Assembly: GCA_033764445.1 (NCBI GenBank) | Contig: JANRIZ010000013.1 | Coordinates: 1 to 45,149 of the forward strand | DNA: 45,149 nucleotides | Direction: 5' to 3' | Source of the DNA: Verrucomicrobiia bacterium | Lineage (GTDB): Bacteria; Verrucomicrobiota; Verrucomicrobiia; JAWXBN01 | Part shown: positions 4,458 to 39,200 of the stretch, piece by piece | How the letters are laid out: each line of letters starts with the position of its first letter | How positions within the stretch are numbered: the stretch's first letter is position 1 | Notes under the pieces: model-generated | Told to the model about the DNA's origin: nothing | The model's input: the letters and a program-made list of their open reading frames with translations, nothing else | The model's database searches: none | Made by a program: the position numbers and the translations under genes

Positions 4458-4624
4458 CGGGCCACTCTAACGGGAGATCCCCCCATGGCAATCCGCAACA
4501 AACGACCCCTCCCAAAGTTTCACGGCACCACTCGGTTTTTTACGTTTTTTCCAAACAACTTTTCTCGCCAGTCTCTGTTCATTCGCTTACGTTCATCCAC
4601 GAACCTCTCCCCAAAAATACAACT

Positions 4625-5611: not shown

Positions 5612-5654
5612 TCGCGTCCCTCCCTCCGCCCCCTTCCCAACCTGCCGACCTCCC

Positions 5655-7210: not shown

Positions 7211-8205
7211 CCTTCGCCTACCCCCATCTGCTCTGGCTGCTGGCCCTGCTGCCGGTCCTCGCCTTTCTCAAGGGGCGCAAGGGGCAGTCCGCCTCGGTCC
7301 AGTATTCCAGCGGCGAAATTCTCAAATCCCTCTCGCTCCAGCGCAAAGCCCGGGCGGGTCTCTTCCTCGCCTCCCTCCGGTTCCTCGCCCTGGCTCTCAT
7401 GATTGTGGCCCTGGCCCGGCCCCAGATCGGCAGGGGGAACACGGAAATCACCGCCAGCGGCATTGATATCGTCCTGGCCCTGGATGTCTCGGGCTCCATG
7501 CAGGCGGAGGATGTCACGCTCCATGGCCAGCCGGTCACACGCATGCGGGCGGTCAAAACCATGACACGGAAGTTCATCGACTCGAGGCCCGGAGACCGCA
7601 TCGGTCTGGTCGTCTTTGCGGGCCAGCCCTACCTGGTCAGTCCCCTGACGCTCGACCACGACTGGCTTCAGATGAACCTCGACCGGATCGAGGTCGGCAT
7701 GGTCGCCATCGATGGAACGGCCATCGGCTCGGGGCTGGCGGCCAGTGTCAACCGTCTCCGTGATCAGCCGGCCAAAAGCAAGGTCGTCGTCCTCCTCACC
7801 GACGGGGCCAACAACGCGGGCAAGGTCACCCCGGAAATTGCGGCGGAGGCGGCCAAGGCGCTGGGAATCAAAGTCTACACGATCTGCTTCGGATCGGGCG
7901 GGGAAATCATGGTCCGCGTCAAAAACCGCATGGGTTTTGACCAGATGGTCCCGATGCAGGCGGACATCGATGAGGCGACTCTCGAAAAAATCGCCGCGCT
8001 CACGGGTGGGAAGTTTTTCCGGGCGACGGATTCGGACGCACTGGAAAATGTCTTCAAGCAGATCGACCAACTGGAAAAGACGGTCGTCAAAATCAAGAAG
8101 TTCGAAACCTATACGGAGTTTTTCCAATGGTTCCTCATCCCGGGTCTTCTGATTCTGGGGCTCGAACTGCTGCTGGCCCACACACTTCTCCGGAGGCTTC
8201 CCTAA
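7207..8205 (+). CDS. batA: BatA: membrane-anchored von Willebrand factor A (VWA) domain protein
   Basis: N-terminal 'YPHLLWLLALLPVLAF', two TM helices, a VWA core 'DIVLALDVSGSM...LLTDGANNAG' and a C-terminal TM. Its ATGA start overlaps the preceding gene. Confidence 0.85.
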   Translation: MTFAYPHLLWLLALLPVLAFLKGRKGQSASVQYSSGEILKSLSLQRKARAGLFLASLRFLALALMIVALARPQIGRGNTEITASGIDIVLALDVSGSMQAEDVTLHGQPVTRMRAVKTMTRKFIDSRPGDRIGLVVFAGQPYLVSPLTLDHDWLQMNLDRIEVGMVAIDGTAIGSGLAASVNRLRDQPAKSKVVVLLTDGANNAGKVTPEIAAEAAKALGIKVYTICFGSGGEIMVRVKNRMGFDQMVPMQADIDEATLEKIAALTGGKFFRATDSDALENVFKQIDQLEKTVVKIKKFETYTEFFQWFLIPGLLILGLELLLAHTLLRRLP

Positions 8206-8206
8206 G

Positions 8207-10249: not shown

Positions 10250-10262
10250 CCTCTCCCCTCCC

Positions 10263-12101
10263 ATGCGCCCCCTCCCCACATTCCTCATCTGTCTCCTGCT
10301 GACCATTCTGGGACTGTCAGCTCAGGAGCCGGGGGTCTCGGCGACTCTCAACCCCCCGGAAATCAATCTGGGCGAGGCGGCCGAACTTCAGGTCTCCACC
10401 ACCAATCTCAGCGACGCGGAGGCCCCGGAAATCCCCAAGGTCGAGGGTCTGCAAATCCGTCTGGCGGGCAACCAATCCTCCCAGCAGGTCAATATTGTCA
10501 ACGGGCGCATGTCCTCGATCACCACGGTCACCTTCGTGTACCATGTCATCCCGATGAAGGCGGGGGATTTCACCATTGCCCCGATTTCCGTGAAGGCCAA
10601 GAACCAAACCTTCAAAAGTGCGGCCCTCTCCCTGAAGGTCTCGGCGGTCACAGCCCCGCCGCCGGTTCCCACCATGCCGGGTCAGCCGACCTCAGGCGCT
10701 CCGGCTCCCTCCGCGGCGGCGACGGAAATCTCGTTCATGAAGCTGTCCCTCCCGGAACGCGGTTTTTATGCAGGGGAACAGATTCCCATGACCCTCAAAT
10801 TCTACCTCCGCGCCGATGTCCAGGGTGATCCCCGCCTTCCGGAAATGTCCAGCCAATCCTTTACCATGGCCCCGCTGGGACAGAACCCGGATCAGGGCAT
10901 CGAAAAAATCAACGGGGTGCCCTACCATGTCCTGACCTGGAACACAACCATCGGCACGGTCAAATCCGGCGACTTCCCGCTCTCGGCAAGCATGAATCTC
11001 ACGGTGGCCCTCCCCTCCCCGCGGACACGTCAGGCAAACAATCCCTTCAACGACCCTTTCTTCGACCAGATTTTCAACTCGGGTCCGCAACTGGAGGCCC
11101 GCCAGATCAGGGTCACGACTCCCCCCCTGAAGGTCACGATCCTGCCGCTGCCGGAAAAGGACAAACCAACCGCGTTTTCCGGCGCCATCGGCAGTTTCCA
11201 GATCGCCTCGTCGGTTTCCACCAATCAACTGACCGTGGGGGACCCGGTCACGGTCAAAACCACCCTCATCGGATCGGGGAATTTCGACCGGATCACCGAT
11301 CTGGCCTATTCCAACCCGCAGGGGTTCAAATCCTATCCCCCCTCGGTCAAATTTGATCCGACGGATAAAACGGGGTTTTCGGGCCGGAAAATCTTTGAAC
11401 AGATCCTCGTCCCCCAGTCCCGGGAGATTCGTGAAATCCCGCCGTTGTCCTTCTCCTATTTTGATCCGGAGGCGGGGCGTTATGTCTCGCTCAAATCCGA
11501 GGCCATCGCGGTCATGGTCCAACCAGGGTCGGCCACGCCCTCCCTGCCGGCCTCCCGCACATCCGTCCCCACGGGCTCCGCCCCGGCCCCGGCGGCGGTC
11601 GATCTTGTCTCCAACAAGCTGGACCTGGGCAATACCCGGGATTCCCTGTCGGCCTTCCCGCAGGCGGTCATGGTCGCGGCTCTCAATGTGGCGGCGGTTT
11701 TGGCGGCTCTGCTGTGCTTTTTCCTGGCCCGTCACCGCGAAAGTTATCTGCGGGACCCGGACCGTCAGCGCTCCCACCAGGCGGGTCAGGCGGTGGCGGC
11801 TTCGCTCTCGGCGATGGACCGGGCGATCAGCCACTCGGATACACAGGGGTTTTTTGCGGCGGCCCGCGCCTCGGTCCAGCACCGGCTCTCGGCCTCCCTG
11901 AAAATCACTCCCTCCTCGATCACGCTCCAGGAAATCGACGCCTCCCCGCGCATCCCCGAAGGGGTCCGTGTCACGATCCGCCAGCTCTTCGAGACGGCGG
12001 ATGCCACCAGTTACTCGGGGGACCGCTACGAAAGTGTCCAGCTTCAGGCCTGGAAAAAACACACGCTCAATATTCTCAAAAATCTGGAGAATCTCAAATG
12101 A
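10263..12101 (+). CDS. batD: BatD-like protein (oxygen-tolerance protein family), secreted/membrane
   Basis: The 612-aa ORF has a signal peptide 'MRPLPTFLICLLLTILGLSA', a long beta-rich ectodomain and a C-terminal TM 'VMVAALNVAAVLAALLCFFL'. Its position after batB/C matches the operon. Confidence 0.75.
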   Translation: MRPLPTFLICLLLTILGLSAQEPGVSATLNPPEINLGEAAELQVSTTNLSDAEAPEIPKVEGLQIRLAGNQSSQQVNIVNGRMSSITTVTFVYHVIPMKAGDFTIAPISVKAKNQTFKSAALSLKVSAVTAPPPVPTMPGQPTSGAPAPSAAATEISFMKLSLPERGFYAGEQIPMTLKFYLRADVQGDPRLPEMSSQSFTMAPLGQNPDQGIEKINGVPYHVLTWNTTIGTVKSGDFPLSASMNLTVALPSPRTRQANNPFNDPFFDQIFNSGPQLEARQIRVTTPPLKVTILPLPEKDKPTAFSGAIGSFQIASSVSTNQLTVGDPVTVKTTLIGSGNFDRITDLAYSNPQGFKSYPPSVKFDPTDKTGFSGRKIFEQILVPQSREIREIPPLSFSYFDPEAGRYVSLKSEAIAVMVQPGSATPSLPASRTSVPTGSAPAPAAVDLVSNKLDLGNTRDSLSAFPQAVMVAALNVAAVLAALLCFFLARHRESYLRDPDRQRSHQAGQAVAASLSAMDRAISHSDTQGFFAAARASVQHRLSASLKITPSSITLQEIDASPRIPEGVRVTIRQLFETADATSYSGDRYESVQLQAWKKHTLNILKNLENLK

Positions 12102-12832
12102 ACCGCCCTGTCTGCCTCCTCCTCATGCTCCTGATGGCGGGTTCCCTTTCTCTCCGGGCCCAGAGCCCGGAACAGCGGTTTGCGGCGGCCAATTCGGATT
12201 TTGCCTACGGTCGCTACCCGGAGGCGATCCGTGGCTACGAGTCCCTGATCGGCTCCAAATCCCTCTCCGCCCCGGTCTTCTTCAATCTGGCCAATGCCTA
12301 CTTCCGCAATGGCCAGATCGGCAAGGCCATCGTCAATTACAAACGCGCCCTGCTTCTGGCCCCCCGCGACCCGGATCTCCGCGCCAACCTGGGGTTCACG
12401 CTCAAAAACAAGGGGCTTTACGACAGTGATGACGGGGTTCTGGACGCCTTCGCCCGGCTGCTGCCCACGCCCTGGTGGTCTCTCCTGGGCACGGCGGCGG
12501 TCATGTCTTCCTGTCTGCTGGCCTGTTTCATCTTCTTCAAATCGGGCGTGGCCCTGCGCCTCCGCTGGTGCCTCCTCCCCCTCCTTCTGCTGGCGGCACT
12601 CGGCTTCGGCACGGCCTGGTACAGCGTGCGCTTCTACAACGAGGTGGTGGTCACCCGTCCGGAAGCCCCGCTTCTGATCTCCCCCTACGAAAAGGCCGCA
12701 GAGGTCACGCGTCTGACCGATGGCAGCATTTTGCGCTCAGCCCGCCGGCACGGCGACTTCTGGCTGGTCTCCACGACCGATGGCCGCCGCGGATGGATCT
12801 CGGCACAGGATGCGGAAAGTGTCGGGTTCTAG
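12098..12832 (+). CDS. batE: BatE-like protein: TPR repeats + TM segments + C-terminal SH3b-like domain
   Basis: Its ATGA start overlaps the batD stop. It has a signal peptide 'MNRPVCLLLMLLMAGSLSLRA', TPRs 'FFNLANAYFRNGQIGKAIVNYKRALLLAP' and a C-terminal 'GDFWLVSTTDGRRGWISAQDAE' SH3b-type motif. The start lies inside track ORF 11714..12832. Confidence 0.75.
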   Translation: MNRPVCLLLMLLMAGSLSLRAQSPEQRFAAANSDFAYGRYPEAIRGYESLIGSKSLSAPVFFNLANAYFRNGQIGKAIVNYKRALLLAPRDPDLRANLGFTLKNKGLYDSDDGVLDAFARLLPTPWWSLLGTAAVMSSCLLACFIFFKSGVALRLRWCLLPLLLLAALGFGTAWYSVRFYNEVVVTRPEAPLLISPYEKAAEVTRLTDGSILRSARRHGDFWLVSTTDGRRGWISAQDAESVGF

Positions 12833-22680: not shown

Positions 22681-22986
22681 ATGCTCATTTCGATCTTGAT
22701 CCGTCGCCTGCGCCCGGGCGTGACCTTCGAGCAGTTTCAGGCGGCGTGGATGGCCGACCCCGGTCACTTCGGTACGACCATCAAGGTGACACATGCCCGG
22801 CGGATCGATGACGACCGTGAAGTCGTCTCCTACGCCGTGATGGATATGAGCAGGGACGACTTGCACAAAATTCTCAACCGCACAGAAGCAGGCGAACGGA
22901 CACGGCATGACCGCATCGACGGGATGATCGAGAGCACTGTCATCAAGGGAATCTACGAGATCCTTGATGAGGTCGACTTGACGTGA
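22681..22986 (+). CDS. Hypothetical small cytoplasmic protein (101 aa)
   Basis: An open frame with ATG start in an otherwise gene-free interval. I do not recognise a family. Confidence 0.4.
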   Translation: MLISILIRRLRPGVTFEQFQAAWMADPGHFGTTIKVTHARRIDDDREVVSYAVMDMSRDDLHKILNRTEAGERTRHDRIDGMIESTVIKGIYEILDEVDLT

Positions 22987-23127: not shown

Positions 23128-23886
23128 TCACCCCGCCGCGAGACCATCCAACTCGTCTTTCACGCGCATGGCATTGAGCATGATCTCCTGATAGGGCAGA
23201 CGGAGGGTCCGCTCGACGGTGGGCGGGGTTTCATCAAAGTGAAACGAACACCGCCCCCAGTTGAGCATGTGAGTGCAGGCGGCCTGCGGCTCATCCTTGC
23301 CGCAGAGGGCATGGATGATGTCCCCGGAATCAATCATGATTTTTCCCGAAATTTCCGAGGCCAGTTCCGTGACCTCCACCGTTCCGCTCCACCGGCTCAT
23401 ACACAACATTTGCAGAAGGTCACCCAATGGCAGGGAGGAAAGATAGCCCAGCTTGATCTTTTCCCGCGGCTCCACCGGTTTGTCCCCGAATGGAACGGCG
23501 ACGATTTTGCCTTCCGGAACGGATTCACTGCGCTTTTCGTACTCCACGAATTTCAGACGGACGCTTTGTTTGAGCACTTCGAGACTGTAGGGCTTGGAAA
23601 TGAAAAATGTCCGCTCCGGATTCCAGTCAAGATGCATCATCAGCGTGCTCTGGGGTGTCCCCAACACAATCATATCCACTGGACCGTGTTGTTGCTGATA
23701 CCGTTTGTAAAAGGATATAAAATCGGGGCCCGGCTGTCCATCATCGACGATCAGCAAATCCAAGGAGGAGTTCCCAGCCTCCAAGCCCTCTGGCACAAAA
23801 CATATCTGCACTTGGGGCAAAGCCAGGAGGGCCAATTCAATCCATTCCGCTTTCGAGAGGGGCTTGAGGGCGATTCCAATACGCAT
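23128..23886 (-). CDS. Degenerate receiver-like N-terminal domain + DUF4388 (PATAN-like) domain protein
   Basis: From the Met at 23886, the N-terminus 'MRIGIALKP...DLLIVDDGQPG...' is CheY-like but lacks the N-terminal acidic pair. The C-terminal 'LGYLSSLPLGDLLQMLCMSRWSGTVEV...GKIMIDSGDIIHA...CSFHFDE' matches the DUF4388 signature. Confidence 0.65.
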   Translation of the reverse strand: MRIGIALKPLSKAEWIELALLALPQVQICFVPEGLEAGNSSLDLLIVDDGQPGPDFISFYKRYQQQHGPVDMIVLGTPQSTLMMHLDWNPERTFFISKPYSLEVLKQSVRLKFVEYEKRSESVPEGKIVAVPFGDKPVEPREKIKLGYLSSLPLGDLLQMLCMSRWSGTVEVTELASEISGKIMIDSGDIIHALCGKDEPQAACTHMLNWGRCSFHFDETPPTVERTLRLPYQEIMLNAMRVKDELDGLAAG

Positions 23887-23991
23887 TGATTGAAAATGCA
23901 AGCAGTTCGTGTGCCGATCCTGTTTCAGGCACGCCATTTGCTGATAATATTTTTCAGCCCTCAAAAACACCATTATTTAAGATACAGGATA

Positions 23992-24651
23992 ATGTTTTCC
24001 GGAAACTTCACACAGATCGCCTTCGGGGAGGTCTTGCGGCTGCTCCATGCAGCCTCACAGACAGGTGAATTGCGTATTTCCGATGACCACGCCATGTCTG
24101 CCTCCGTCTATCTGAAGGGGGGCCACATCGTGCATGTGGAGGCCGACACTGAGACCGGGCTTGATGCCCTGAGTGTCATTTGCCAGCACGTCAATGCAGC
24201 CTTCTCCTTTGAGGTGGGAACACTTTCCGCCCAGGAAAATCTGGCCGGGGTCCCCACCAAAAAGGTCATCGAAAGTGTCACAACGCGTGTGACCGAAATC
24301 AACACGCTTCGACAATTCGCCCCCGGGCCGCATGACCTGATTCTTTACAAACCTGGCAAAAGTCTCGATCACCTCGACACGACTCCGGAGGACCTTTCCC
24401 TGCTTCTGACCGCCGACGGCAAACGCAGTGCCGAGAAGATTGCCCACCTCAACGGCAAATCCTTCGATCAAATTGTGCAGGCCCTGGCCAAGTTCAATCA
24501 GGCGGGGATCATCGACATTCAAAAAAACGCCACTCCGCCACTCCCCGATGAACCAATGCCCACTCCCGAGGTGGCTGATCCTTCCGCTCCCCTCCCCGAT
24601 TCCCCCCAGACAACGGCTGTCCGTTACTGGCGTGGAAAAAAAATCGAATAA
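23992..24651 (+). CDS. DUF4388 (PATAN-like) domain protein with Pro-rich C-terminal tail
   Basis: 'FSGNFTQIAFGEVLRLLHAASQTGELRI...VYLKGGHIVHVEA...AFSFEVG' is the DUF4388 signature. It is divergent from the previous gene, with a 105-bp shared promoter region. It ends 6 bp before amt. Confidence 0.7.
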   Translation: MFSGNFTQIAFGEVLRLLHAASQTGELRISDDHAMSASVYLKGGHIVHVEADTETGLDALSVICQHVNAAFSFEVGTLSAQENLAGVPTKKVIESVTTRVTEINTLRQFAPGPHDLILYKPGKSLDHLDTTPEDLSLLLTADGKRSAEKIAHLNGKSFDQIVQALAKFNQAGIIDIQKNATPPLPDEPMPTPEVADPSAPLPDSPQTTAVRYWRGKKIE

Positions 24652-24657
24652 CCCCCT

Positions 24658-26472
24658 GTGGCACATAACATGCTCAAGACCCATTCCATGATTCGCATCC
24701 TCCTTCTGCTGGCAACAGCCCTGTGGCTGCTCAATCCTCTCCTCGCGCAAACCTCCAAAACCGACGATATCCGTTCGCTTCAGGATGAGGTGCGCAAACT
24801 GCTGCGCGATTCCATCGACGCGCAAAAGGCCCTGCTGGAGCAGAGCAAAAGCATTGAGGAACTCCGCAAGGATCTGACACGGCTGCAGTCGGACTCCTCC
24901 TCTCTCCAGAAAACAATTCCGACCTCCTCCTCGGATCCCGCAGGTCTGGAGGAAATCAAAAAGGAACTGGCCTCCGTCCTGGAAACCCAAAAGGCCCTGA
25001 AAGAGTCGCTGGGCGTCAATAATCCCGAATCAGCTCCCGCCGCCCCTGCGACCTCGACTCTCACACCCGAAGAGGCGACCACCCTCAAGCTCACCCCCAC
25101 GGCGATCAACATCGTGTGGACCCTGCTATGCGGATTCCTGGTCATGTTCATGCAGGCGGGGTTTGCGATGGTGGAAACCGGTTTCACCCGGGCCAAAAAC
25201 GCGACCCACACCATGGCCATGAATTTCATGGTTTATTCCTTGGGGATGCTGGGATTCTGGATCTGCGGATTTGCCATCATGTTCGGCGGAACAGGGGCCC
25301 CGACCTCCGTCAGCACTGTCGGAACACTGGGACCGGAAGTGGGACAGGTCCTCAATACCGCCGTCGGATTCACCCTGGGCGACAAATTTTTCAGTCTCTT
25401 CGGAACCACCGGGTTTTTTCTTCCGGCCTCACTGTGGACCGGAGGCATCTTCACCCTTTTCCTCTTCCAGATGGTCTTTATGGATACCACCGCCACCATT
25501 CCCACCGGTTCCATGGCGGAACGCTGGAAATTCCTTCCCTTCTGCATTTTTGCGGTCTTGGTGGGCGCAATCATCTATCCTCTCTATGGTCACTGGGTCT
25601 GGGGAGGCGGATGGCTGGCGGCTTTGGGCAAAAACTTTGGCTTGGGCAATGGCCATGTGGACTTTGCGGGTTCCTCAGTCGTGCATTTGTGCGGCGGGAT
25701 GCTGGCCCTGGTGGGCGCAAAAATCCTCGGACCCCGCATCGGGAAATTCAACAAGGACGGAACAGCCAATCCCGTCCCCGGACACAATATACCGATGGGT
25801 TTTGTCGGTACGTTCATCCTGGCCTTCGGATGGTTTGGTTTCAACGCCGGTTCCACGCTCGCCGGGATGGACGTTCAAATCGGCATCATTGCCACCAACA
25901 CGATGCTCGCCTCAATGGCAGGAGCGATTGCCGGAATGATCACCACCTGGATCCGCTTTTCCAAACCCGACCCAAGCTTCATGTGCAACGGCATGCTGGC
26001 GGGGATGGTGGCGATCACGGCCCCCTGTGCCTTTGTGGATTCCTGGGCGGCCGTGTTCATCGGAGCCTCCGCCGGGGTGCTGGTTGTTTTTGCCGCCTAC
26101 TTCATCGAGGAAATCATGAAAATTGATGATCCTGTGGGTGCGATCTCGGTTCATGCATTTAACGGTGCCTGGGGCGTCATCGCACTGGGCCTGTTTGCCA
26201 ACGGCCGTTACGGTGCCGGATGGAACGGCGTGGCCACTCCGGTCACGGGGCTCTTTTATGGAAGTGCCAGCCAATTTATTGCGCAGATCATCGGGACAGG
26301 CGCATGCATCGTGGCTGTCGGTCTCATGGGTTACATCATGTTCATGCTGATCGAAGTCACCATCGGCAACCGTGCCACTGACGCCCAACAGCTCGAAGGA
26401 ATGGACACAGCGGAAATCGGCGTGGAGGCCTACTCACGTTCCACACCCACACGGGTTGATCTGGGCCGGTAA
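24658..26472 (+). CDS. amt: Ammonium transporter (Amt/MEP family) with a signal peptide and an N-terminal periplasmic coiled-coil extension of about 140 aa
   Basis: The Amt core starts at 'VWTLLCGFLVMFMQAGFAMVETGFTRAKN' and has 11 TM helices, including 'HLCGGMLALVGAKILGPRIGKF' and 'AFNGAWGVIALGLFA'. The N-terminal part reads 'DDIRSLQDEVRKLLRDSIDAQKALLEQSKSIEELRKDLTRLQSD...'. The start codon is ambiguous: GTG 24658, or ATG 24670 or 24688. Confidence 0.85.
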   Translation: MAHNMLKTHSMIRILLLLATALWLLNPLLAQTSKTDDIRSLQDEVRKLLRDSIDAQKALLEQSKSIEELRKDLTRLQSDSSSLQKTIPTSSSDPAGLEEIKKELASVLETQKALKESLGVNNPESAPAAPATSTLTPEEATTLKLTPTAINIVWTLLCGFLVMFMQAGFAMVETGFTRAKNATHTMAMNFMVYSLGMLGFWICGFAIMFGGTGAPTSVSTVGTLGPEVGQVLNTAVGFTLGDKFFSLFGTTGFFLPASLWTGGIFTLFLFQMVFMDTTATIPTGSMAERWKFLPFCIFAVLVGAIIYPLYGHWVWGGGWLAALGKNFGLGNGHVDFAGSSVVHLCGGMLALVGAKILGPRIGKFNKDGTANPVPGHNIPMGFVGTFILAFGWFGFNAGSTLAGMDVQIGIIATNTMLASMAGAIAGMITTWIRFSKPDPSFMCNGMLAGMVAITAPCAFVDSWAAVFIGASAGVLVVFAAYFIEEIMKIDDPVGAISVHAFNGAWGVIALGLFANGRYGAGWNGVATPVTGLFYGSASQFIAQIIGTGACIVAVGLMGYIMFMLIEVTIGNRATDAQQLEGMDTAEIGVEAYSRSTPTRVDLGR

Positions 26473-26504: not shown

Positions 26505-27668
26505 ATGCTTCCATGCATGGCCGCCACACTTCCTCCGCTCAAATCCGTTTTTAATACTCCCTCCTGGACCCTGAAATCAAAGTCCGTCGAGGCTTCGGTT
26601 TCCCGCACGGGGGGGCATCTGGGCCCGGTCACCTTCATTTTCGGAAAACGCCGGATCTCTCCGCTTTCGGTCTGCCCCTGGCATGCGGAAAAACCAGACC
26701 CTTCCCTGCCCCCGCTGCTTCAGGTGCTGCGCGGCGATTTTCTGTGTTTGCCTTTCGGTGGGAACGACACTCCCTACAAGGGCAGAAAATTCCCGCCTCA
26801 CGGCGAACCGGCCAACTCCCCCTGGCATCTGGAATCCGCCGATCTTCGCCCGGGAATCAGGGAGTTGCATCTCTCCCAGAACCAACGCATCACCGGCGGG
26901 CGGGTCGATAAATTCATCACGCTCCTGGGGAACGACCCTGTCCTCTACCAAAGCCATGTCATCAGCGGGATCGAAGGCCCGATGAATCCCGGACACCATG
27001 CCATCGTCCGGTTCCCGGAAACCCCCGGCAGCGGCCACATCTCGGTCAGCCGCTTTGTTCACGCCCAGACCCTGCCGACAGAATTTGAGCTTCCCGAAAA
27101 CGGCGGATATTCCTCCCTCAAACCCGACAGCCCATTTTCCAGCCTCAAAAAAGTCCCGCTGGCCCGCGGGGGTTTCACGGATATCTCCATTTACCCGGCC
27201 CGCAAGGGATTCGAGGACCTGATCATGCTCGTCTCTGATCCCCGCCTGAATTTTGCCTGGACGGCGGTCACCTTCCCGGGGGAGGGTTATGTCTGGTTCA
27301 CACTCAAAGACCCGCGCATTCTGCGGAATACGATCTTCTGGATTTCCAACGGGGGACGCCATGGAAAGCCGTGGAACGGTCGGCACACGGCCCGCATGGG
27401 CCTGGAGGAATGCACGTCCTATTTTCACTACGGACTGGCGGAATCCGCCGCCGCCAATCCGCTCTCGCGGAAGGGTTACCCAACGGTCATTCCCCTGGGC
27501 AAAAAACGGCCCACCTGTCTGAATACGATCATGGCCTGTGCCCTGATCCCGAAGGGTTTTGACGAGGTGGCCCGGATCGACAAATCACCCGGCGGGGTCA
27601 CACTGCAAAGTCGTTCGGGCAAAAAAATTGCCGTCCCCCTGACTCTGGGTTTTCTCTTCGGAGAATAA
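26505..27668 (+). CDS. Hypothetical protein (about 380 aa), family not recognised
   Basis: A long open frame with coding-like composition directly downstream of amt. The alternative ATG at 26517 is equally plausible. Confidence 0.5.
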   Translation: MLPCMAATLPPLKSVFNTPSWTLKSKSVEASVSRTGGHLGPVTFIFGKRRISPLSVCPWHAEKPDPSLPPLLQVLRGDFLCLPFGGNDTPYKGRKFPPHGEPANSPWHLESADLRPGIRELHLSQNQRITGGRVDKFITLLGNDPVLYQSHVISGIEGPMNPGHHAIVRFPETPGSGHISVSRFVHAQTLPTEFELPENGGYSSLKPDSPFSSLKKVPLARGGFTDISIYPARKGFEDLIMLVSDPRLNFAWTAVTFPGEGYVWFTLKDPRILRNTIFWISNGGRHGKPWNGRHTARMGLEECTSYFHYGLAESAAANPLSRKGYPTVIPLGKKRPTCLNTIMACALIPKGFDEVARIDKSPGGVTLQSRSGKKIAVPLTLGFLFGE

Positions 27669-27791: not shown

Positions 27792-27868
27792 ATCCGTGTT
27801 TGATCCGTGGCTCTCAAAGAGTCTGGTGAAATCGGAGGCCACGGATGAAACACCGATCAAACACGGAT
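27792..27868. repeat. MITE/REP-like element, copy A: 77 nt bounded by perfect 14-bp inverted repeats 'ATCCGTGTTTGATC ... GATCAAACACGGAT' with a nested inner stem
   Basis: Read directly from the sequence. The inner stem 'ccgtggc...gccacgg' nests within the outer 14-bp stem. A truncated third left-arm-like fragment, 'catccgtgtcccgc', sits near 27728. Confidence 0.6.
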
Positions 27869-28012
27869 CAGAAAAATGCCAGACACGATTCGAACCTGAG
27901 GAAAAGCAGGCTGTTTTGTTCCACTGTTTTCCATGTGTGCTCTCGCTTTCAATGCAAGAGACGCCCCATCATCAGATTGGTGACACAATTCTTTGCATTT
28001 TCAGGCTCTCCC

Positions 28013-28099
28013 ATCCGTGTTTGATCCGTGTGCATCCGTGGCTCTCAAAATGTCTGGTGCAATCGGAGGCCACAGATGAAACACCGATCAAACACGGAT
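28013..28099. repeat. MITE/REP-like element, copy B (87 nt; same 14-bp terminal inverted repeats; 10-nt internal insertion 'cgtgtgcatc' plus 4 substitutions relative to copy A)
   Basis: Read directly from the sequence. The right arm ends at the stop codon of the acyl-CoA ligase gene. Confidence 0.6.
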
Positions 28100-29586
28100 C
28101 AGACCAGCTCACGTTTGATGACCTTGCCGGTGGGGGTCTTGGGAAACATCTCCATCTTCTTGAAGCTCCGGGGAAGTTTGTAATCGGCCAGATGTTCGCG
28201 CAAATGGCGGAACAGATCCTTTTCATCAATCTCCCGGCCCTCCACGACGGTATAAAAGGCGTGGGGCAGTTCCCCGCGCCTCTGGTCATCGCGTCCCACC
28301 ACCGCCGCCTCACGGATGCCGGGATATTGAAGCATCACTTCCTCGATTTCCCGCGGATAGACGTTCATGCCCCGCACCAGAACCATGTCCTTTTTCCGGT
28401 CCACGATCGTCAGAAACCCGGCCGCATCCACACGCCCCATGTCGCCGGTCAGCAACCAACCCTCCCGCAGGGTGTCGGCGGTGGCGTCAGGGTTGTTGAA
28501 ATACCCCTGCATGACGTTCTCCCCAGACACCCAGATTTCGCCCACCTCACCGACGGGCAATTCCCCGCCCTCCTCGTTGCGGATGGACACGGTGACCCCG
28601 GCAATGGCCTGTCCCACGGACCCATCCACGCCTTCGGCACCGGGACGATTCAGTGAAACCAGGGGGGACGCCTCGGAAAGTCCGTAGCCCTCGATGAGGG
28701 GAAAACGGAATTTTTTACGGAACGCCGACCGGACCTCCGCCGGAAGAGGGGCCGCCCCGGAAATGGCCACGCGCAGGGGACACACCCAGTTGAAATAAAA
28801 CGGGAACTTGCCCTGCACCATGGCCTGGAACAGGGGCGGAATCCCGGGCAGCACCGTGGCGCGTGCCTTTTGTATCTCCCCGAAAATCTGTTTCCCCGAA
28901 TGGGTCAGGGATTTGAGGATCAGCGTGCCGGCCCCATGCGAAAGCGGGACAAAAACGCACACCATGAGCATAAAACTGTGAAACAGCGGCAGCGCACAGA
29001 CCACCCGGTCCGTGTTTTCAAACGCCAGCGCCTGCCGGGCCGCACGCACATTGGCCAGCAGGTTGCGGTGAGTCAGCATCGCCCCCTTGGGATGACCGGT
29101 GGTGCCGGAGGTGTAAAGGATCACCGCCAGGTCCGTCCCCTCGGTCATCACCGGAGGCCGCGACTTCAGGGACTGTCCCACCTCGGAAAACTCATGTTCC
29201 ACCAGGTAGATTCCCTGCAGCGAGGGCACCTTCATCCGCAGGGACTGGTGCACATCAAAAAATGCCCCGGAACTGATCATCACCCGCACCTCGCAGTCGT
29301 TGAGGATGTGCCGGATTTCACCGGCCTTCAAAAATGTGTTCAGGGGGACCATCACCGCACCGGCCAGAAATATCCCGTAGGTGGCGGCGACAAAATCCGG
29401 GCTGTTTTCCAAAAGCAGTGCCACCCGGTCCCCCTTGCCGATTTCCAGGTTTTGCAGGGAGGCACAGATTTTACGCGCCCGGGCGAACACTTCCGAATAC
29501 GAATATTCCTGCCCCGAAAACACCAGCGCGGTCCGGGCCGCATTTTCAGCGGCCACCTTTTCAAAAAGTGCATGCAACGTATCCAT
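28099..29586 (-). CDS. AMP-dependent synthetase/ligase (long-chain fatty-acid--CoA ligase-like)
   Basis: 495 aa with AMP-binding motifs 'ILYTSGTTGHPKGAMLTH', 'GYGLSEAS', 'GWLLTGDMG' and 'PKTPTGKVIKREL'. Confidence 0.85.
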   Translation of the reverse strand: MDTLHALFEKVAAENAARTALVFSGQEYSYSEVFARARKICASLQNLEIGKGDRVALLLENSPDFVAATYGIFLAGAVMVPLNTFLKAGEIRHILNDCEVRVMISSGAFFDVHQSLRMKVPSLQGIYLVEHEFSEVGQSLKSRPPVMTEGTDLAVILYTSGTTGHPKGAMLTHRNLLANVRAARQALAFENTDRVVCALPLFHSFMLMVCVFVPLSHGAGTLILKSLTHSGKQIFGEIQKARATVLPGIPPLFQAMVQGKFPFYFNWVCPLRVAISGAAPLPAEVRSAFRKKFRFPLIEGYGLSEASPLVSLNRPGAEGVDGSVGQAIAGVTVSIRNEEGGELPVGEVGEIWVSGENVMQGYFNNPDATADTLREGWLLTGDMGRVDAAGFLTIVDRKKDMVLVRGMNVYPREIEEVMLQYPGIREAAVVGRDDQRRGELPHAFYTVVEGREIDEKDLFRHLREHLADYKLPRSFKKMEMFPKTPTGKVIKRELV

Positions 29587-33978: not shown

Positions 33979-34038
33979 TTGATGTGTGGTCCAAACTGAT
34001 GCTATTCATCCTCTGACAACCCCGGGAGTCCCTGTCTT

Positions 34039-36150
34039 ATGCTTCATCCGATCCTCGCCCTCACTCTGCCCCCTCTTCTCACCATCGCCCTGTACGCGGG
34101 GGTGGCCATTGTCGGTATCATTGTCCTCTACGTGGTGATGCGGATTGTGGGGTTCAAATACCACAACGTGGACCAGGGCCAGGCGCTCATCCGCAACGGG
34201 CTGGGGGGAACCAGCGTGTCCTTCAGCGGGATGACCGTCTGGCCGATCATCCACCGTCTGGAGTACATGGATATCACCGTCAAACGCGTCGAAATCGACC
34301 GGCGGGGCGCCACGGGCCTGATCTGCAAGGATAATCTCCGGGCTGATATCAAGGTGGCGTTTTTTGTGCGTGTCGAAAAGGAGTCCGAAAACGTCAAACG
34401 TGTCGCCCAATCCCTCGGGTGCGTGCGTGCCTCCGACGAGCAGGCACTCATCGACCTCTTTGACGCCAAGTTTTCCGATGCCCTCAAGGCCGCCGGACGC
34501 CAGTTCGATTTTGAGGAATTGCTCAACTCCCGCGAGGCCTTCCGCCAGAAGGTCAAGGAATCCATCGGCACGGATTTGAACGGCTACGTCCTGGATGATG
34601 CCTCCATCGACCACCTCGAGCAAACCAAGGTGGATTTGCTCGACCCGGATAACATCCTCGACTCCGAGGGCATCAAAAAAATCACCGAACGCACGGCCAT
34701 CCAGAAAATCCGCGCCAACGAAATCAACCGCGACCGCGAAAAAACAATCACCCAGAAGGATATCGAAACACGCGAGGCGGTCCTCGAACTCAACCGCCAG
34801 CTCTCCGAGACGGAGGAAAAACAGAAGCGCGAGGTCGCCTCCATCAAGGCCCGCGAGGAATCCACCACCCTCCAGGTCCAGCAGGAGGAACGGCTCAAGG
34901 GCGAAAAAGCCCGCATCCTCACCGAGGAGGAGGTCCAGGTCGCCGAGGAAAACAAAAACCGCCAGATTCTCATCGCCCAACGCAACAAGGAACGGGCCGA
35001 CGCGATCGAACAGCAACGCGTCCAGAAAGACCGCGACCTTGAAGCCACCGAACGCGAGAAGGTGGTCGCCCTCGCCTCGATCGAACGGGACAAAATCGTG
35101 GAAACCGAACGCAAGTCGATCCAGGAGGTCATCCGCCAGCGGGTCATGGTCGAACGCACGGTCGTCGAGGAACAGCAACGCATGAAGGACACGGAGGCTT
35201 TTGCCGGCGCGGAACGCGAACGCAAGGTCAAGATGGTCGATGCGGAAGCGGCCGCCGAACAGCAGCTCGTCAAGGAAATCAAGGCCGCGGAAGCCGCCAA
35301 AAAGGCCGCGGAATTGTCCGCCGAACAGGAATTCTACAAGGAGGTCAAACTCGCCGAAGCCCGCAAAAAGGCGGCGGAACTGGATGCGGAACAGAAAATT
35401 GTCTCCGCCCGTGCGGAACAACTGGCCGCGGTGGAGCTGGCCGAGGGCAAAAAGAAACTCGCCGCCGGGATCACGGCCGAACAGGCGGCCCCGGGTCTGG
35501 CCGAAGTCAACATCATGGAAGCCAAATCCGCCGCCCTCGAAAAACAGGGCACGGCGGAGGCCCGGGTCCTGGACCTGAAGTTCAAGGCGGAGGCCGACGG
35601 CATCACCCGCAAGGCGGAGGCCATGAAACTCCTCCACGAGGCGGGCAAGGAACACGAGGAATTCAAACTGGAACTGGCCACCCAGAAGGACATCGCCCTG
35701 GCGCGGATCGCCGTCCAGAAGGACATCGCCTCCAGCCAGGCTCTGGTGGTCGGGGAAGCCCTCAAAAACACACGGGTCGACATCGTCGGCGGCGAAACCG
35801 AATTCTTCGACCGCATCGTCGGGTCCATCACGGCGGGCAAGGCCCTCGACCGCATGGTCGACAACAGCCGCACGCTCACCACGGTCCGCAACACCTTCTT
35901 CAAGGGGGATGCCGACACCTTCCGTCAGGAAGTGCGAAAACTGGTGGATAGCTTCGGCTTTTCGCCGGAGGAACTCAAAAATCTCAGCATCACCGCGGCC
36001 CTGACGCAAATGGCGGCGGACTCGGAGGAAGCCCCGCTCAAGTCACTGGTCAAAAAACTCCAGCGCTTTGCCAAGGGCGCGGGCCTGGGGGCGCAAAAGC
36101 TCGACCAGTTCCTTGCGGACCTGGATGAGTCCAAAGTCTCGCGCAAATAA
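34039..36150 (+). CDS. Flotillin-family SPFH/Band-7 protein (703 aa) with N-terminal TM anchor and long Ala/Glu/Lys-rich coiled coil
   Basis: It has an N-terminal hydrophobic anchor 'LLTIALYAGVAIVGIIVLYVV'. The SPFH core is 'QGQALIRNG...VWPIIHRLEYMDITVKRVEI...LICKDNLRADIKVAFFVRV'. EA-rich heptad repeats follow: 'EAAKKAAELSAEQEFYKEVKLAEARKKAAELDAEQK'. Confidence 0.85.
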   Translation: MLHPILALTLPPLLTIALYAGVAIVGIIVLYVVMRIVGFKYHNVDQGQALIRNGLGGTSVSFSGMTVWPIIHRLEYMDITVKRVEIDRRGATGLICKDNLRADIKVAFFVRVEKESENVKRVAQSLGCVRASDEQALIDLFDAKFSDALKAAGRQFDFEELLNSREAFRQKVKESIGTDLNGYVLDDASIDHLEQTKVDLLDPDNILDSEGIKKITERTAIQKIRANEINRDREKTITQKDIETREAVLELNRQLSETEEKQKREVASIKAREESTTLQVQQEERLKGEKARILTEEEVQVAEENKNRQILIAQRNKERADAIEQQRVQKDRDLEATEREKVVALASIERDKIVETERKSIQEVIRQRVMVERTVVEEQQRMKDTEAFAGAERERKVKMVDAEAAAEQQLVKEIKAAEAAKKAAELSAEQEFYKEVKLAEARKKAAELDAEQKIVSARAEQLAAVELAEGKKKLAAGITAEQAAPGLAEVNIMEAKSAALEKQGTAEARVLDLKFKAEADGITRKAEAMKLLHEAGKEHEEFKLELATQKDIALARIAVQKDIASSQALVVGEALKNTRVDIVGGETEFFDRIVGSITAGKALDRMVDNSRTLTTVRNTFFKGDADTFRQEVRKLVDSFGFSPEELKNLSITAALTQMAADSEEAPLKSLVKKLQRFAKGAGLGAQKLDQFLADLDESKVSRK

Positions 36151-36201
36151 CAACCCCCATGATCGGCGGGTGGAAAACCTCCCTCCCCTGCCCCCCTCCC
36201 C

Positions 36202-39200
36202 ATGGCCAATCATCAGGAGTCCCCTCCCCCGGTGTCTGCAACGGCTCCCGCCCTTGAAAGCGGCACCTACGAGATCATCCGGTCCCGGCTGCATGAACAG
36301 GCGACGCGTCTGCAGGACCGGCTCGGCTCCCTCAATGCCGCCCGCCGCGAAACCTTCGGTTCGATCCCGTTTGAATTGCTGGCCACCGAACGGGTGCTCA
36401 CGGAAAATAATTGCGTGCCACGGGATATGGCCGTTTTCGGACCCAGCCGGTTTGTCTTCGGGTACAATGTCCACATCGGCCTGAAATCCGAGACGCGGAT
36501 TGCGGATGTATTTTCGCTGTACGAATACCGGGGACGGCAATTCCATCCCCTGCCGGTTTCCTGGCTGGAAGACCCGAAATTTGCAGGGGATTTCAGGGAC
36601 CTCTACAAGTATTACAAGGAAACGGTCTTCTCCCATTTCCGGAACAAGGCGCCCTACCTGTACATGGTCTTCCAGGTGGGGAAAAATGTCTCGGATGTCA
36701 AGGCCTTCAAATGGCAGTGTGGTCCGGGCGAACCGAAATATCTGGGCAATCGTTTCGACCACGAAATCACCTTCCCGCCCCAGCACGATTTCGAATGGAA
36801 ACGCGCCACGCGGGACCTCCACCGCAAGGGGGCCTTCCCCCACGTCTCGATTGAGGACCGGGTGTTTGTTGAAACCACCGGCGGCGACCTGACCATCAAG
36901 GTTGAAAACAATACGGACATCGGCGAGGGCATTTACTCCGAACCCGTCTCCAACCGGGATCAGACCCTCGATGACGCGGAAATCCTCTACGCGATCGCGG
37001 GACACCTGGTCCTTTTGAAAATCCGCCCCTTCCAGGAAAACGACCACCGGTATCTGGTTTTCAACGGAAAAACCAACCAGGTCCGCCGCCTGGACAGCAT
37101 CGCCTCCAGCTGTGTCCTGCTGCCGGACAGCCAGGGGATCATTTTCCCGGGCGGGTATTTCCTCCAGACGGGTGAATCCAAAACCTTCGACCTGCCCACC
37201 GGGGACATGATCTTCAAAAAAAAGATCACCTCCCCCAACGGCGAGGACACGCTGTACACCTTCTTCAACCGGGCCGCGGGGCTGTTCATCCTTTTTTCGT
37301 ACAACCGCATCGAACAAACCGTCAAAACCCCGATCCTCTGCAACGGATTTTCCGTGTTTGAAAACGGGGAGACAATCCTCTTCCGATGCGACGAGGAACC
37401 CCGCAAAAACCACGCACTCCAAATCTGGCGCACGCCCTTCACCCATGCGGACGCAGCGCCAGCGGTCCCGGCGGACTCCTTTCTGGGCAAAATCGGCAAT
37501 GCGGGCGTGGTGGCCTGCATGACCGACTGCCATGCCCTCCTGAACCTCCTCAAGAAGGAGGATTCCTATGCCAACCTCTATCTGGACGTGGTCCGTCTGA
37601 CCACCGACCTCATCGACAACCATTTCTGGATCGGGGACGCCGCGGCCTTCAACCTTCGCGAACCGCTGGAAGGAATCCGCAAGGCGGGACGTTCGGCCAT
37701 CGACGAATTTGAAAAGGTCACCGGCATCCGCAAGTCCACCTCCCGGGAAACGGCCCGGCTCCAGTCCCAATCCGCGGCCCTGACGTCCAGAATCAGCCAG
37801 ACGATTCCCGAATCGATTGACGTGTTTGTGGACTTTCTCTCGGCCCTGCGCCGGTTGCGCGGGGAAATCATCTCCGCCCGGGACCTGCGTTATGCCGACC
37901 TGCCCCTGCTCGACTCCCTCGAAAGGGAGGTGGTCGCCCAGTTGGACAGGCTCTCCGCCGAATGTGTGGTGTTTCTGATCAAACCCGAGGCGCTCAACCC
38001 ATACCGCACCCGGGTGGAAGCCGAAAAAAACGCACTCGATGCGGTCACAAAATCCGCGGAAGCCGACGGGCAGGACAAACGGCTGGCCGCCATCTCCTCC
38101 GAAATGGATATGCTCATCGAGATTGTCGGCAATCTCAAGATCGAGGACCCCACCCAGACCACAGCCATCATTGACTCGATTTCCACGCTGTACGCGGGCC
38201 TCAACCAGATCAAGTCCTCCCTCAAAAACAAACGCACGGAACTGGCGGTCACCGAGGGTTCGGCGCAATTTGCGGCCCAGGTCAAGCTGCTCAACCAGAC
38301 GGTCACCCACTACATCGACCTGTGCGATTCACCGAAAAAATGCGATGAGTTGCTGACCCGGCTGATGGTGCAGGTCGAGGAACTGGAGGGGCGTTTCTCG
38401 GAGGTGGATGCCTACGTGGAGGAACTCTCGGTCAAACGCGAGGAAATCTACAACGCCTTTGATGCCCGCAAAATCCAGCTCAACGAATCCCGCAACAAAC
38501 GGTGCGCCGCCCTGCAAGCCTCCGCCGACCGGGTGTTGACGGGGGTCAAAAACAAGGCGGAGTCCCTCAAAAATCTCGATGAAATCAATTCCTACTTCGC
38601 CTCCGATCTGATGGTGGACAAGGTCCGGGACCTGATCACCCAACTGACCGGACTCGAGGACAGTGTCCGCGCCGATGAAATCCAAAGCCGTCTCAAGACG
38701 ATCCAGGAGGGGGCTGTCCGTCAGCTCAAGGACCGTCTGGAACTTTTTGTCGACGGCCAGAATGTGATCCAGCTGGGTCCACACCGCTTCTCGGTCAATA
38801 CCCAGCCGCTGGATCTGACGGTGGTCCCACGTGACGGAGACATGTATTTCCATCTTTCCGGCAGCAACTTTTTTGAAAAGATCACCGACGCCGGTTTCAC
38901 GACCACCCGCGAGGTTTGGAGCCAGGAAATCGTCTCGGAAACAGAAACGGTGTACCGTGCCGAATATCTGGCCCATCTCATTTTTCTGGAAGCCCTCGCG
39001 GCTCCTCCACAGAAACTGGAGGAATGGTTGTCGCTGGAAACCGAACCCTTTGCGGAACGGGTCCGCCAGTTTGCCGCCACGCGGCTGACCGAAGGATACG
39101 TCAAGGGGGTGCATGATCTGGATGCGGCGGCAATTCTCCGTCCCCTGATGACGATCCACCGGGACCTGAATCTGCTGCGTTATCCGCCCCGGGCCCGGGC

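Follow-up and report, generated by a model that had tools for sequence, protein, structure and literature searches.

A conserved Verrucomicrobiota gene module of two PATAN/DUF4388 proteins and an Amt protein, with sigma-54-type promoters

A 45,149-bp stretch of a Verrucomicrobiae MAG (the window, meaning the whole stretch of DNA that was analysed) encodes two PATAN/DUF4388 proteins, here called P1 and P2, together with an Amt protein. It is highly likely that P1, P2 and Amt form a conserved three-gene module of Verrucomicrobiota with sigma-54-type promoters, and its genes are inherited together. The association of the PATAN pair with Amt suggests, from sequence, a mode of ion-transporter control that has not been described before. 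Our best overall explanation, to which we assign a probability of roughly one half, is a sigma-54-controlled module whose PATAN proteins partner or regulate the transporter from the cytoplasm. For Amt proteins, PII/GlnK control of ammonium entry is viewed as ancestral and nearly universal, and here a whole Amt clade evolved alongside two PATAN proteins without an adjacent PII gene.

A recurrent P1/P2/Amt arrangement

All elements that an initial annotation had claimed for this region were recovered by ORF and Pfam analysis, including the 105-bp spacer (23887-23991) that separates the divergent P1 and P2 genes. The features are as follows.

23128..23886, minus: P1 gene, 252 aa plus stop (ORF, homologue coverage, Pfam, AF2, Foldseek)
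23524..23886, minus: P1 N-terminal probable pseudo-receiver, aa 1-121
aa 123-147, minus: P1 disordered linker
23131..23445, minus: P1 C-terminal PATAN/DUF4388 domain, aa 148-252
23901..23915, minus: sigma-54-type promoter of P1 (-24 GG / -12 GC), GGCACACGAACTGCT, 14 nt before the P1 ATG
23928..23942, plus: sigma-54-type promoter of P2, (A)GGCACGCCATTTGCT, 49 nt before the P2 ATG
23992..24651, plus: P2 gene, 219 aa (DUF4388 Pfam match)
23992..24321, plus: P2 PATAN/DUF4388 domain, aa 1-110
24337..24522, plus: P2 predicted winged helix, aa 116-177
24550..24609, plus: P2 disordered Pro-rich linker, aa 187-206
24622..24639, plus: P2 C-terminal motif RYWRGK
24660..24674, plus: sigma-54-type promoter of amt, (T)GGCACATAACATGCT, 13 nt before ATG 24688
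24688..26472, plus: Amt, 594 aa (Pfam, TIGR00836, pore residues, heptad periodicity, conservation)
GTG 24658 and ATG 24670, plus: alternative upstream starts of Amt
24688..24750, plus: Amt signal-like segment
24763..25017, plus: Amt heptad-periodic periplasmic extension, aa 26-110
25114..26433, plus: Amt domain

The naming of P1 and P2 as DUF4388 proteins is borne out by scores against Pfam DUF4388/PatA_N of 63.1 bits (E 3.2e-17) and 39.4 bits (E 7e-10), respectively, both exceeding the PF14332 gathering cut-off of 25 bits, and no NCBIfam name matched either protein. At full length the minus-strand P1 ORF spans 23128-23973; the 252-aa protein that begins at ATG 23886 (MRIGIALK...) is 96-98% covered by homologues of 228-263 aa. 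The third protein is a member of the Amt/Mep/Rh family, with scores of 356.5 bits against PF00909 (cut-off 23.2) and 355.7 bits against TIGR00836 (cut-off 343.3). In the maximal ORF (24658-26472, 604 aa), the Pfam Ammonium_transp match covers aa 153-592 with an E value of 2e-106. Transport is predicted from the pore residues, which are intact in alignments to 6eu6 and 8qj3: the twin His residues (in SSVVHLCGG and AISVHAFNG), the Phe gate (in FQMVF) and the periplasmic Trp/Ser. WGGG and FGFNAGS are also present, and the C-terminal tail is normal and short.

The arrangement recurs at approximately 12 loci, comprising 11 P1/P2/Amt loci (the window, L005, JGI 3300050046, L072, L088, L089, L090, L091, L092/L093, L101 and JGI 3300056388) and one P1/P2/SulP/Amt variant (L087). 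Four of the trio loci were added by a metagenome scan with a P2 profile, from which seven distant DUF4388 proteins were set aside, and two look-ups made by Amt similarity alone both recovered the trio. Gene order is retained at 35-43% protein identity, and because some 12 loci share it amid unrelated flanks, the arrangement is far beyond chance. The DUF4388-amt adjacency originally remarked on in the window is therefore strongly conserved among relatives. A Polyangiaceae locus (L047) was rejected as a member, as the weak DUF4388 ORF upstream of its Amt (E 4e-12, 1e-3) falls outside the P1 and P2 families.

The reported lack of a glnK gene in the neighbourhood held across the 45-kb window, in which tblastn with E. 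coli GlnB and GlnK gave no match and Pfam scans of the neighbouring genes found no PII. Searches with GlnB/GlnK (tblastn, phmmer) likewise found none in the examined flanks of the trio loci. However, the accompanying premise of near-constant amt-glnK pairing overstates the case for this group: PII accompanies 55 of the 80 related Amt loci, other Verrucomicrobia among them, and the remaining 25 have no nearby PII. In a neighbour-joining tree built without bootstrap support, the trio Amts group as one clade, and every PII-linked Amt, those of the Verrucomicrobia loci L050, L051 and L059 included, falls outside it. Only six residues are specific to the trio clade, and these show no clear cytoplasmic clustering and so are uninformative on a docking surface.

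Sigma-54-type promoters at each gene

By motif, P1, P2 and amt each have their own predicted sigma-54-type (-24/-12) promoter, and those of P1 and P2 stand back-to-back within the 105-bp spacer. Scans used a strict motif (TGGCACG-N4-TTGCW) and a relaxed one (GGYAYR-N4-NTGCW). The P2 promoter departs from the strict motif at one position and is the sole match of that quality in the window. Over 157 kb from 11 loci, the relaxed motif yielded 26 matches against approximately 4.8 expected by chance, and every one of the 26 is located at a position upstream of P1, P2 or amt. A hold-out locus, L101, reproduced all three sites, with one extra match.

The P1 motif occupies the equivalent place in all 10 loci that have P1 and DNA. 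Nine of 10 loci carry the P2 equivalent, with L088 having a GG-to-AG variant. For amt, the equivalent lies 13-17 nt before the ATG where checked (window, L005, L101); the motif is also found immediately upstream of Amt in L072, L087, L088, L089, L090 and L092, and L091 has it at the equivalent position, just short of the contig end. Because this conserved promoter occupies 24660-24674, the amt start is probably ATG 24688. Thus, the 6-bp gap between P2 and amt in the initial annotation applies to the maximal ORF (GTG 24658), whereas the likely start leaves 36 bp.

Other signals were sparse. The 105-bp spacer contains no sigma-70-like site, the P2-amt gap lacks a terminator-like site, and no Rfam RNA element (e.g. 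nitrogen riboswitches) matched around the module at E<=1. An alignment of spacers revealed no conserved block beyond the P1 and P2 promoters. Among the scanned window ORFs there is neither rpoN nor an AAA+ enhancer-binding protein. Loci in which P2 relatives adjoin CPA2 genes have only weaker GG-N10-GC candidates. For the trio, the three matched sigma-54-type promoters constitute a directly testable regulatory prediction.

PATAN proteins and their possible action on the transporter

The description of P1 as receiver-like stands for its fold, as evident by an AF2 model (pLDDT 81) with (beta-alpha)5 topology and by Foldseek, whose top PDB matches are receiver domains (E 4e-5, TM ~0.65), but Pfam Response_reg gives no match. 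The acidic Mg2+-binding pair after beta-1 is missing in all nine P1 family members, and P1 is therefore probably a pseudo-receiver that is incompetent for phosphorylation. An acceptor Asp after beta-3 is present in eight of the nine, with His in its place in P0139, and Lys98-Pro99 is invariant. P1 shares the PATAN/DUF4388 domain and a receiver fold with the PATAN-REC proteins PatA, PixG, PixE and LsiR. The proposed PatA-like character nevertheless fails on these residues and on domain order, which is reversed relative to the N-terminal PATAN and C-terminal receiver of the PatA type; P2 lacks a receiver. The module also has no seen link to pili, phototaxis or heterocysts, and belongs to Verrucomicrobiota rather than cyanobacteria.

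P2 was initially annotated as DUF4388 plus a Pro-rich tail. Both parts are present, but this description missed the predicted winged helix and a near-invariant C-terminal YWRG(K/R), which ends nearly all of the approximately 40 clusters of the P2 family and is kept at the protein level despite synonymous codon changes. The predicted P2 fold is that of a winged helix and resembles peptide-binding RRE/PqqD domains equally well. Across the family alignment, the sequence of its putative recognition helix varies and is rich in acidic residues. A winged helix could mean DNA binding, which counts against reading P2 as a transporter partner or regulator. Profile comparison links the PATAN domain of P1 to that of P2 as a distant paralogue (hhalign probability 96%).

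Amt is not the only neighbour of the P2 family, since relatives also lie directly upstream of SulP-STAS (L087) and CPA2-TrkA_C (L003/L004, L006) transporters. The same small protein family thus occurs beside both anion (SulP) and cation/proton (CPA2) transporters, and its constant partner is therefore ‘a transporter’. P2 proteins linked to Amt and to CPA2 are very similar, which counts against a surface tailored to one transporter.

From gene neighbourhood and domain content, we give slightly less than an even chance to a post-translational partner or regulator role for the PATAN proteins. An NtrC-like enhancer-binding protein would switch on the module together under nitrogen limitation, and P2 would then serve the transporter encoded directly downstream as a post-translational partner or regulator on the cytoplasmic side. 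Its tethered basic-aromatic tail could bring P2 to the membrane or to the cytoplasmic face of the transporter, and P1 might modulate P2 by PATAN-PATAN pairing. The two proteins would stand in for the GlnK of other Amts or act together with a GlnK whose gene lies elsewhere. PATAN is known as a protein-protein interaction module that docks on membrane-associated machines, for example PilB1 and the divisome (bioRxiv 10.1101/2021.06.11.447907; PMC7380572).

The closest familiar arrangement is glnK-amtB, in which the gene for a small cytoplasmic protein likewise sits beside amt and whose expression is sigma-54-dependent, via NtrC in E. coli; control of ammonium entry is the proposed common feature. 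In contrast to GlnK, P1 and P2 have no PII match in Pfam or NCBIfam, and their predicted folds are PATAN plus a winged helix or receiver. The partner genes here lie upstream of amt and encode two proteins rather than one trimer, and P2 relatives accompany SulP and CPA2 transporters as well. Soluble regulator genes co-oriented beside an ion transporter gene, as here, are also found in SbtA-SbtB, KhtT-KhtU and TrkA-TrkH. Those regulators belong to PII-like or RCK families, and we know of no PATAN protein among them.

GlnK blocks AmtB with its T-loop tip, Y46-R47-G48 (PMC4274968). The Y-W-R-G of the P2 tail is superficially like this tip, a resemblance that serves as a lead rather than as evidence of homology. 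In a bolder version of the partner reading, which we consider rather doubtful, P2 would represent a PII-independent class of transporter gatekeepers, with the YWRG(K/R) tail entering or docking beside the Amt cytoplasmic exit in mimicry of the GlnK tip. The same would apply to SulP and CPA2, P1 would set the freedom of the tail, and the proteins would be produced only under sigma-54 activation.

Were P2, perhaps with P1, instead a local transcription factor tuning the three sigma-54 promoters through its winged helix, contact with the transporter would not be needed. We regard this as unlikely, given the variable, acid-rich recognition helix, the equally good fit to RRE/PqqD domains and the lack of a conserved block in the spacers beyond the two promoters. 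Sigma-54 activation requires an AAA+ domain, which neither P1 nor P2 has, and the invariant P2 tail would be left unexplained. Work on cyanobacterial PATAN regulators also speaks against DNA binding (bioRxiv 10.1101/2021.06.11.447907). Another reading comes from the sensor Amts, as the solved structures nearest to the Amt domain are Ks-Amt5 (6eu6, E 1.7e-62) and Sd-Amt1 (8qj3, E 5.9e-61), ahead of AfAmt1 and AmtB. Amt could accordingly be imagined as an ammonium receptor or transceptor with P2 and P1 as non-covalent cytoplasmic transducers, encoded separately in place of the histidine kinase or HAMP-GGDEF (diguanylate cyclase) module that is fused C-terminally in those proteins. The window Amt carries Q, F, E, N, T and T of the receptor N1/N2 signature, QX6EX15NX2D[F/T]X54-60TX2[S/T], together with the exit-narrowing Asn (PMC11152129). 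Its match is incomplete (Q..E..N..V-Y..T..T), with Tyr for F/T and, unlike the sensor Amts, Val for the N2 Asp. This Asp does occur in four trio Amts (L005, L072, L089, L092) and in none of 79 non-trio Amts, but the signature without Asp is common to PII-linked relatives and was discarded as a discriminator. The pore retains every residue required for transport, proven transporters occur in the published ‘cluster 2’ (PMC11152129), and P2 genes beside SulP and CPA2 transporters would go unexplained, such that a receptor role appears quite improbable.

P1 and P2 might instead help to assemble the transporter or position it at a defined place in the cell, which seems a little less probable again. 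Known PATAN roles are spatial, as for PixG/PixE with PilB1 and PatA with the divisome (bioRxiv 10.1101/2021.06.11.447907; PMC7380572), and the basic-aromatic tail could bind membrane. However, the module has no pilus, divisome or MglA/MglB genes as conserved neighbours, its flanks differ at every locus, and Amt, SulP and CPA2 transporters are not known to require polar placement. DUF4388 genes are abundant in these phyla (7673 profile matches), which would favor an adjacency that is fortuitous or merely co-regulated, with the PATAN proteins and transporter uncoupled. We consider this very improbable in light of the order kept in about 12 loci at such low identity and with wholly different flanks, the single Amt clade and the matching promoter at each gene.

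The literature searched contained nothing that links PATAN/DUF4388 to Amt. If the PATAN pair does act on the transporter, as we favor, this would be the first PATAN function outside motility and cell patterning and a second solution for shutting an ammonium channel, and many ‘DUF4388’ genes of little-studied phyla could be interpreted.

The periplasmic extension of Amt

The signal peptide and periplasmic heptad segment attributed to Amt are matched by a hydrophobic signal-like segment (MIRILLLLATALWLLNPLLAQ) followed by ~115 aa with a hydrophobic periodicity of 3.5 residues. None of 2000 shuffles (mean power 10.8) reached the observed periodicity power of 96.9, and hydrophobic residues fill 79% of a/d positions. 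A start-codon artefact was dismissed: there is no internal Met before TM1, and the motif LQxE(I/V)RxLQRDxIDLQK is common to the closest homologues. The extension is genuine and conserved, and nearly all of the 120 closest Amts carry one. It is not specific to the trio module, as PII-linked Amts also match the region (for example L062, L086 and L059). In the literature searched, we found no published description of a periplasmic coiled-coil stalk on an Amt. Many of the extensions among the 120 closest Amts are coiled-coil-like, and a stalk of this kind on a trimeric channel is widespread among these relatives.

A PATAN gene pair beside an ammonium transporter gene

Region 23128-26472 of the window, which derives from a Verrucomicrobiae metagenome-assembled genome, carries three genes: a divergently oriented pair coding for the PATAN-domain proteins P1 and P2, and an ammonium transporter gene, amt, whose product gives a Pfam E value of 2e-106 and a TIGR00836 score that exceeds the cut-off. 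The PATAN genes are arranged as follows.

23128-23886, minus strand (ORF to 23973): P1; 252-residue form from the ATG at 23886 (MRIGIALK...), of which homologs of 228-263 residues cover 96-98%
23992-24651, plus strand: P2; 219 residues, with an N-terminal match to Pfam DUF4388 (E 7e-10)

The 252-residue form of P1 is favored because of the lengths of its homologs. In the public annotation of this contig the protein has only 170 residues (P0134), such that its receiver-fold N-terminal domain is cut off. The C-terminal half matches Pfam DUF4388, now named PatA_N and equivalent to the PATAN domain, with an E value of 3.2e-17. The initial annotation had assigned the pair a divergent spacer of 105 bp, which is exactly the distance we measured between the two start codons (23887-23991). 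It had also stated that the neighborhood lacks glnK, a member of the PII family (GlnB/GlnK) of regulators usually encoded beside amt. This is borne out for the whole window, as tblastn searches with GlnB and GlnK reveal zero PII genes, and PII is likewise absent from Pfam scans of the window's other large ORFs.

The P2 family is small: 13 members were found among 5.8 billion proteins by word-indexed searching, and 39 representatives at E<=1e-30 by an exhaustive profile search. By using genomic-context look-ups and two collection scans, we found the same arrangement of divergent P1 and P2 genes followed by amt (hereafter the trio) in the window (also represented by loci L001 and L002) and in loci L005, L072, L088, L089, L090, L092/L093, L101, JGI 3300050046 and JGI 3300056388. 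The third gene of L088 is incomplete and encodes an Amt N-terminus with its extension, and the sequence of L091, which carries the P1/P2 pair, ends just past P2. Adjacency of DUF4388 genes to amt is conserved in relatives. The flanks differ in every locus, and the proteins are only 35-43% identical. Two look-ups picked purely on Amt similarity (proteins P0020 and P0027) returned the trio both times, and therefore amount to an independent test. Variants also exist. In L087 a SulP-STAS transporter gene is inserted between P2 and amt, and in the Methylacidiphilales loci L003/L004 and L006 a P2 homolog without P1 lies directly upstream of a CPA2 Na/H-exchanger gene with TrkA_C domains.

To place these transporters among their relatives, an Amt-queried genome-collection scan was conducted that yielded 80 loci from many phyla. 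A PII gene is present in the examined flanks of 55 of these, including the Verrucomicrobia loci L050, L051 and L059; the remaining 25 carry none in the examined flanks, partly owing to short contigs. None of the trio loci has a PII gene in its flanks. In a neighbor-joining tree of Amt cores, computed without support values, seven trio Amts form one clade apart from every PII-linked Amt. In the loci covered, this clade has thus been inherited jointly with P1/P2 and with no PII gene next to it.

In two loci an additional DUF4388 protein, this one with a fused FHA domain, is encoded near the trio: in L089 (1905-2621, plus strand, convergent and directly after amt) and in L005 (689-1318, plus strand, ~7 kb upstream). 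It is absent from the window. In L047, from a Polyangiaceae metagenome-assembled genome, a weakly DUF4388-like ORF (5106-5918, minus strand) is located divergently just upstream of an amt gene with no PII gene nearby; it was rejected as a member of either the P1 or the P2 family.

Candidate sigma-54 promoters of the module

Each of the three genes in the window is preceded by a sigma-54-type element.

23927-23942, plus strand: P2 promoter, AGGCACGCCATTTGCT, one mismatch to the sigma-54 consensus TGGCACG-N4-TTGCW
23915-23901, minus strand: P1 promoter, GGCACACGAACTGCT, in the spacer
24659-24674, plus strand: amt promoter, TGGCACATAACATGCT, just 3′ of the P2 stop codon

The P2 site is the sole one-mismatch match to the consensus in the window. 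When a relaxed motif (GGYAYR-N4-NTGCW) was scanned over 11 loci totaling 157 kb, 26 matches were obtained versus ~4.8 expected by chance, and all 26 are located upstream of P1 (on its strand), P2 or amt. Each of the nine trio loci with DNA carries two to three matches; the two P2-CPA2 loci have zero, with weaker GG-N10-GC candidates only. In L087 the third site precedes amt and not the SulP gene, and L101, obtained later, reproduces all three sites with one extra match inside amt. An alignment of nine spacers reveals the P1 and P2 promoter elements as the only conserved blocks; the spacer carries no sigma-70-like site, and no Rfam element was found around the module. From these patterns, P1, P2 and amt are very likely sigma-54-dependent, and sigma-54 dependence requires an AAA+ activator. 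An NtrC-type, nitrogen-regulated system would be the natural guess. In most loci the two -24 elements of the spacer are separated by only 13-16 nt (in L072 and L091, by 23-26 nt), too little for an upstream activator site to fit in between.

The amt promoter overlaps two potential start codons (GTG 24658 and ATG 24670), and therefore translation of amt probably begins at ATG 24688. The distance from element to ATG would then be 13 nt in the window, and is 14 nt in L101 and 17 nt in L005. The P1 start codon is 12-16 nt past its own element. With such short distances, the P1 and amt mRNAs would be nearly leaderless. The P1 and amt elements end 12-17 nt before the ATG (window, L005, L087-L092 and L101), and mRNAs with so little leader would be unusual for sigma-54 promoters; the P2 leader is longer, at 16-100 nt. 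A systematic difference also exists at the -24 position, which reads GGCA(T/C) in P1 and amt promoters and GGTAT(G/A) consistently in the P2 promoters of L005, L072, L087, L089, L090, L091, L092 and L101. The P2 promoter of the window, with GGCACG, is the exception.

Protein architectures and possible roles

At its N-terminus the Amt protein of the window has a hydrophobic signal-like segment (MIRILLLLATALWLLNPLLAQ), and between this and TM1 are ~115 residues with a high content of L, S, T, E and K. Residues 26-76 exhibit a very strong 3.5-residue hydrophobic periodicity (power 96.9 versus a shuffle mean of 10.8, with 0 of 2000 shuffles reaching 96.9), and hydrophobic residues occupy 79% of a/d positions in the best heptad register. 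In Amt proteins the N-terminus is periplasmic, as established for AmtB, and therefore the extension should be periplasmic as well, where it could form a three-stranded stalk on the trimeric channel. The initial annotation had allowed that the extension might be an artefact of a wrong start codon. This is ruled out by the 120 closest homologs (467-666 residues), almost all of which have a signal-like start and 40-210 extra residues, by a motif within the extension that is common to the nearest group (LQxE(I/V)RxLQRDxIDLQK), and by the absence of any Met from the N-terminal region to TM1 in the window ORF. The extension is not confined to this locus either, as PII-linked Amts of other phyla align into the same region.

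The protein retains all of the pore residues (twin His, Phe gate, Trp/Ser), and the closest solved structures are those of the sensor Amts Ks-Amt5 and Sd-Amt1. One might therefore ask whether this Amt is a receptor that signals to P1 and P2 as transducers. Most ligands of the published ammonium-receptor signature (PMC11152129) are present, with the N2 Asp replaced by Val. However, the PII-linked relatives have exactly the same pattern, and so the signature provides no evidence that the window Amt is a receptor. An Asp at the N2-site position (Asp-48 of Sd-Amt1) occurs in the trio Amts of L005, L072, L089 and L092, and in 0 of 79 non-trio Amts.

In the AlphaFold model of P1 (pLDDT 81), a disordered linker connects a (beta-alpha)5 domain (residues 1-121) to the PATAN domain, and the best PDB matches of P1 in Foldseek are receiver domains (E from 4e-5, target TM ~0.65). 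Among nine aligned family members, acidic residues after beta-1 are found in none, the position after beta-3 is Asp in eight and His in one, and Lys-Pro after beta-5 is invariant. By this pattern, P1 is a pseudo-receiver. The proposal that P1 is a PatA-like receiver/PATAN protein is not upheld, given this degeneracy and a domain order that is the reverse of that in PatA. Judged by hhalign (probability 96%), P1 and P2 have distantly paralogous PATAN domains.

The P2 model (pLDDT 84) comprises PATAN (1-110), a winged helix (116-177), a disordered Pro-rich linker (187-206) and a short terminal hairpin. At their C-terminus, the family members share a nearly invariant motif, [R/K/Q]-[Y/F]-W-R-G-[K/R]-x-[I/V], found in each of the 13 aligned members and in nearly all profile matches at E<=1e-30. 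Its codons vary synonymously, indicating that selection acts on the peptide. DUF4388 proteins with PATAN and winged-helix domains but without this tail are common.

The loci thus establish a conserved module whose Amts form a clade of their own, with three matching sigma-54-type promoters and no PII gene alongside. It is equally established that the P2 family is associated with transporters and has a conserved tail, and that P1 is a pseudo-receiver. We propose that the module would be co-induced under nitrogen limitation, and that P2 may act on the transporter from the cytoplasmic side, with its tail serving as a docking peptide for the membrane or the transporter and P1 modulating P2 via PATAN pairing. 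The winged helix might instead suggest that P2, perhaps with P1, functions as a local transcription factor. However, the helix that would recognize DNA varies within the family and is acidic, making DNA binding by P2 doubtful, and the precedent of PATAN domains that dock onto membrane machines (bioRxiv 10.1101/2021.06.11.447907; PMC7380572) fits a protein-protein role better. Less likely, P1 and P2 could be positioning factors; a complete lack of coupling between the PATAN proteins and the transporter is very unlikely. Because P2 is found beside Amt, SulP-STAS and CPA2 proteins, its constant partner is an ion transporter, most often a trio Amt.

The Y-W-R-G of the P2 tail resembles the GlnK T-loop tip Y46-R47-G48, in which Arg47 is the residue that blocks the pore of AmtB (PMC4274968). 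Mimicry of this tip is a lead only. The same tail is present on CPA2-paired P2 proteins, and so general membrane anchoring by a basic-aromatic tail is at least as likely. Full-text literature searches returned neither a link between PATAN/DUF4388 proteins and ammonium transporters nor a description of a periplasmic coiled-coil extension of Amt. The component families are known; a conserved, sigma-54-driven module that combines them and lacks a neighboring PII gene appears to be undescribed. Transporters that have a small cytoplasmic protein as dedicated partner are a known kind, of which the module would be another case.

Other features of the window

The ORFs that flank the module (22681-22986, plus strand, 101 residues; 26505-27668, plus strand, 387 residues) have no Pfam or NCBIfam match and are not kept beside the trio at other loci. 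No Pfam match was obtained for the overlapping large ORFs at 34006-40881 (minus strand) or for the ORF at 34039-36150 (plus strand). Additional features are as follows.

4328-12832, plus strand: MoxR-DUF58-BatA-BatB-BatD-TPR operon of the 'aerotolerance' type
36202-41655, plus strand: 1817-residue ORF that contains DUF3686 (DNA-repair ATPase) and DUF7902 besides an AAA domain
27803-27872 and 28034-28103: direct repeat of 70 nt; its two copies, the only ones in the window, are 94% identical and lie 231 nt apart

The direct repeat is located in the stretch that separates the 26505-27668 gene from an acyl-CoA-synthetase-like gene. An inverted repeat of 20 nt, with arms at 27792-27811 and 27838-27857, overlaps the first copy.
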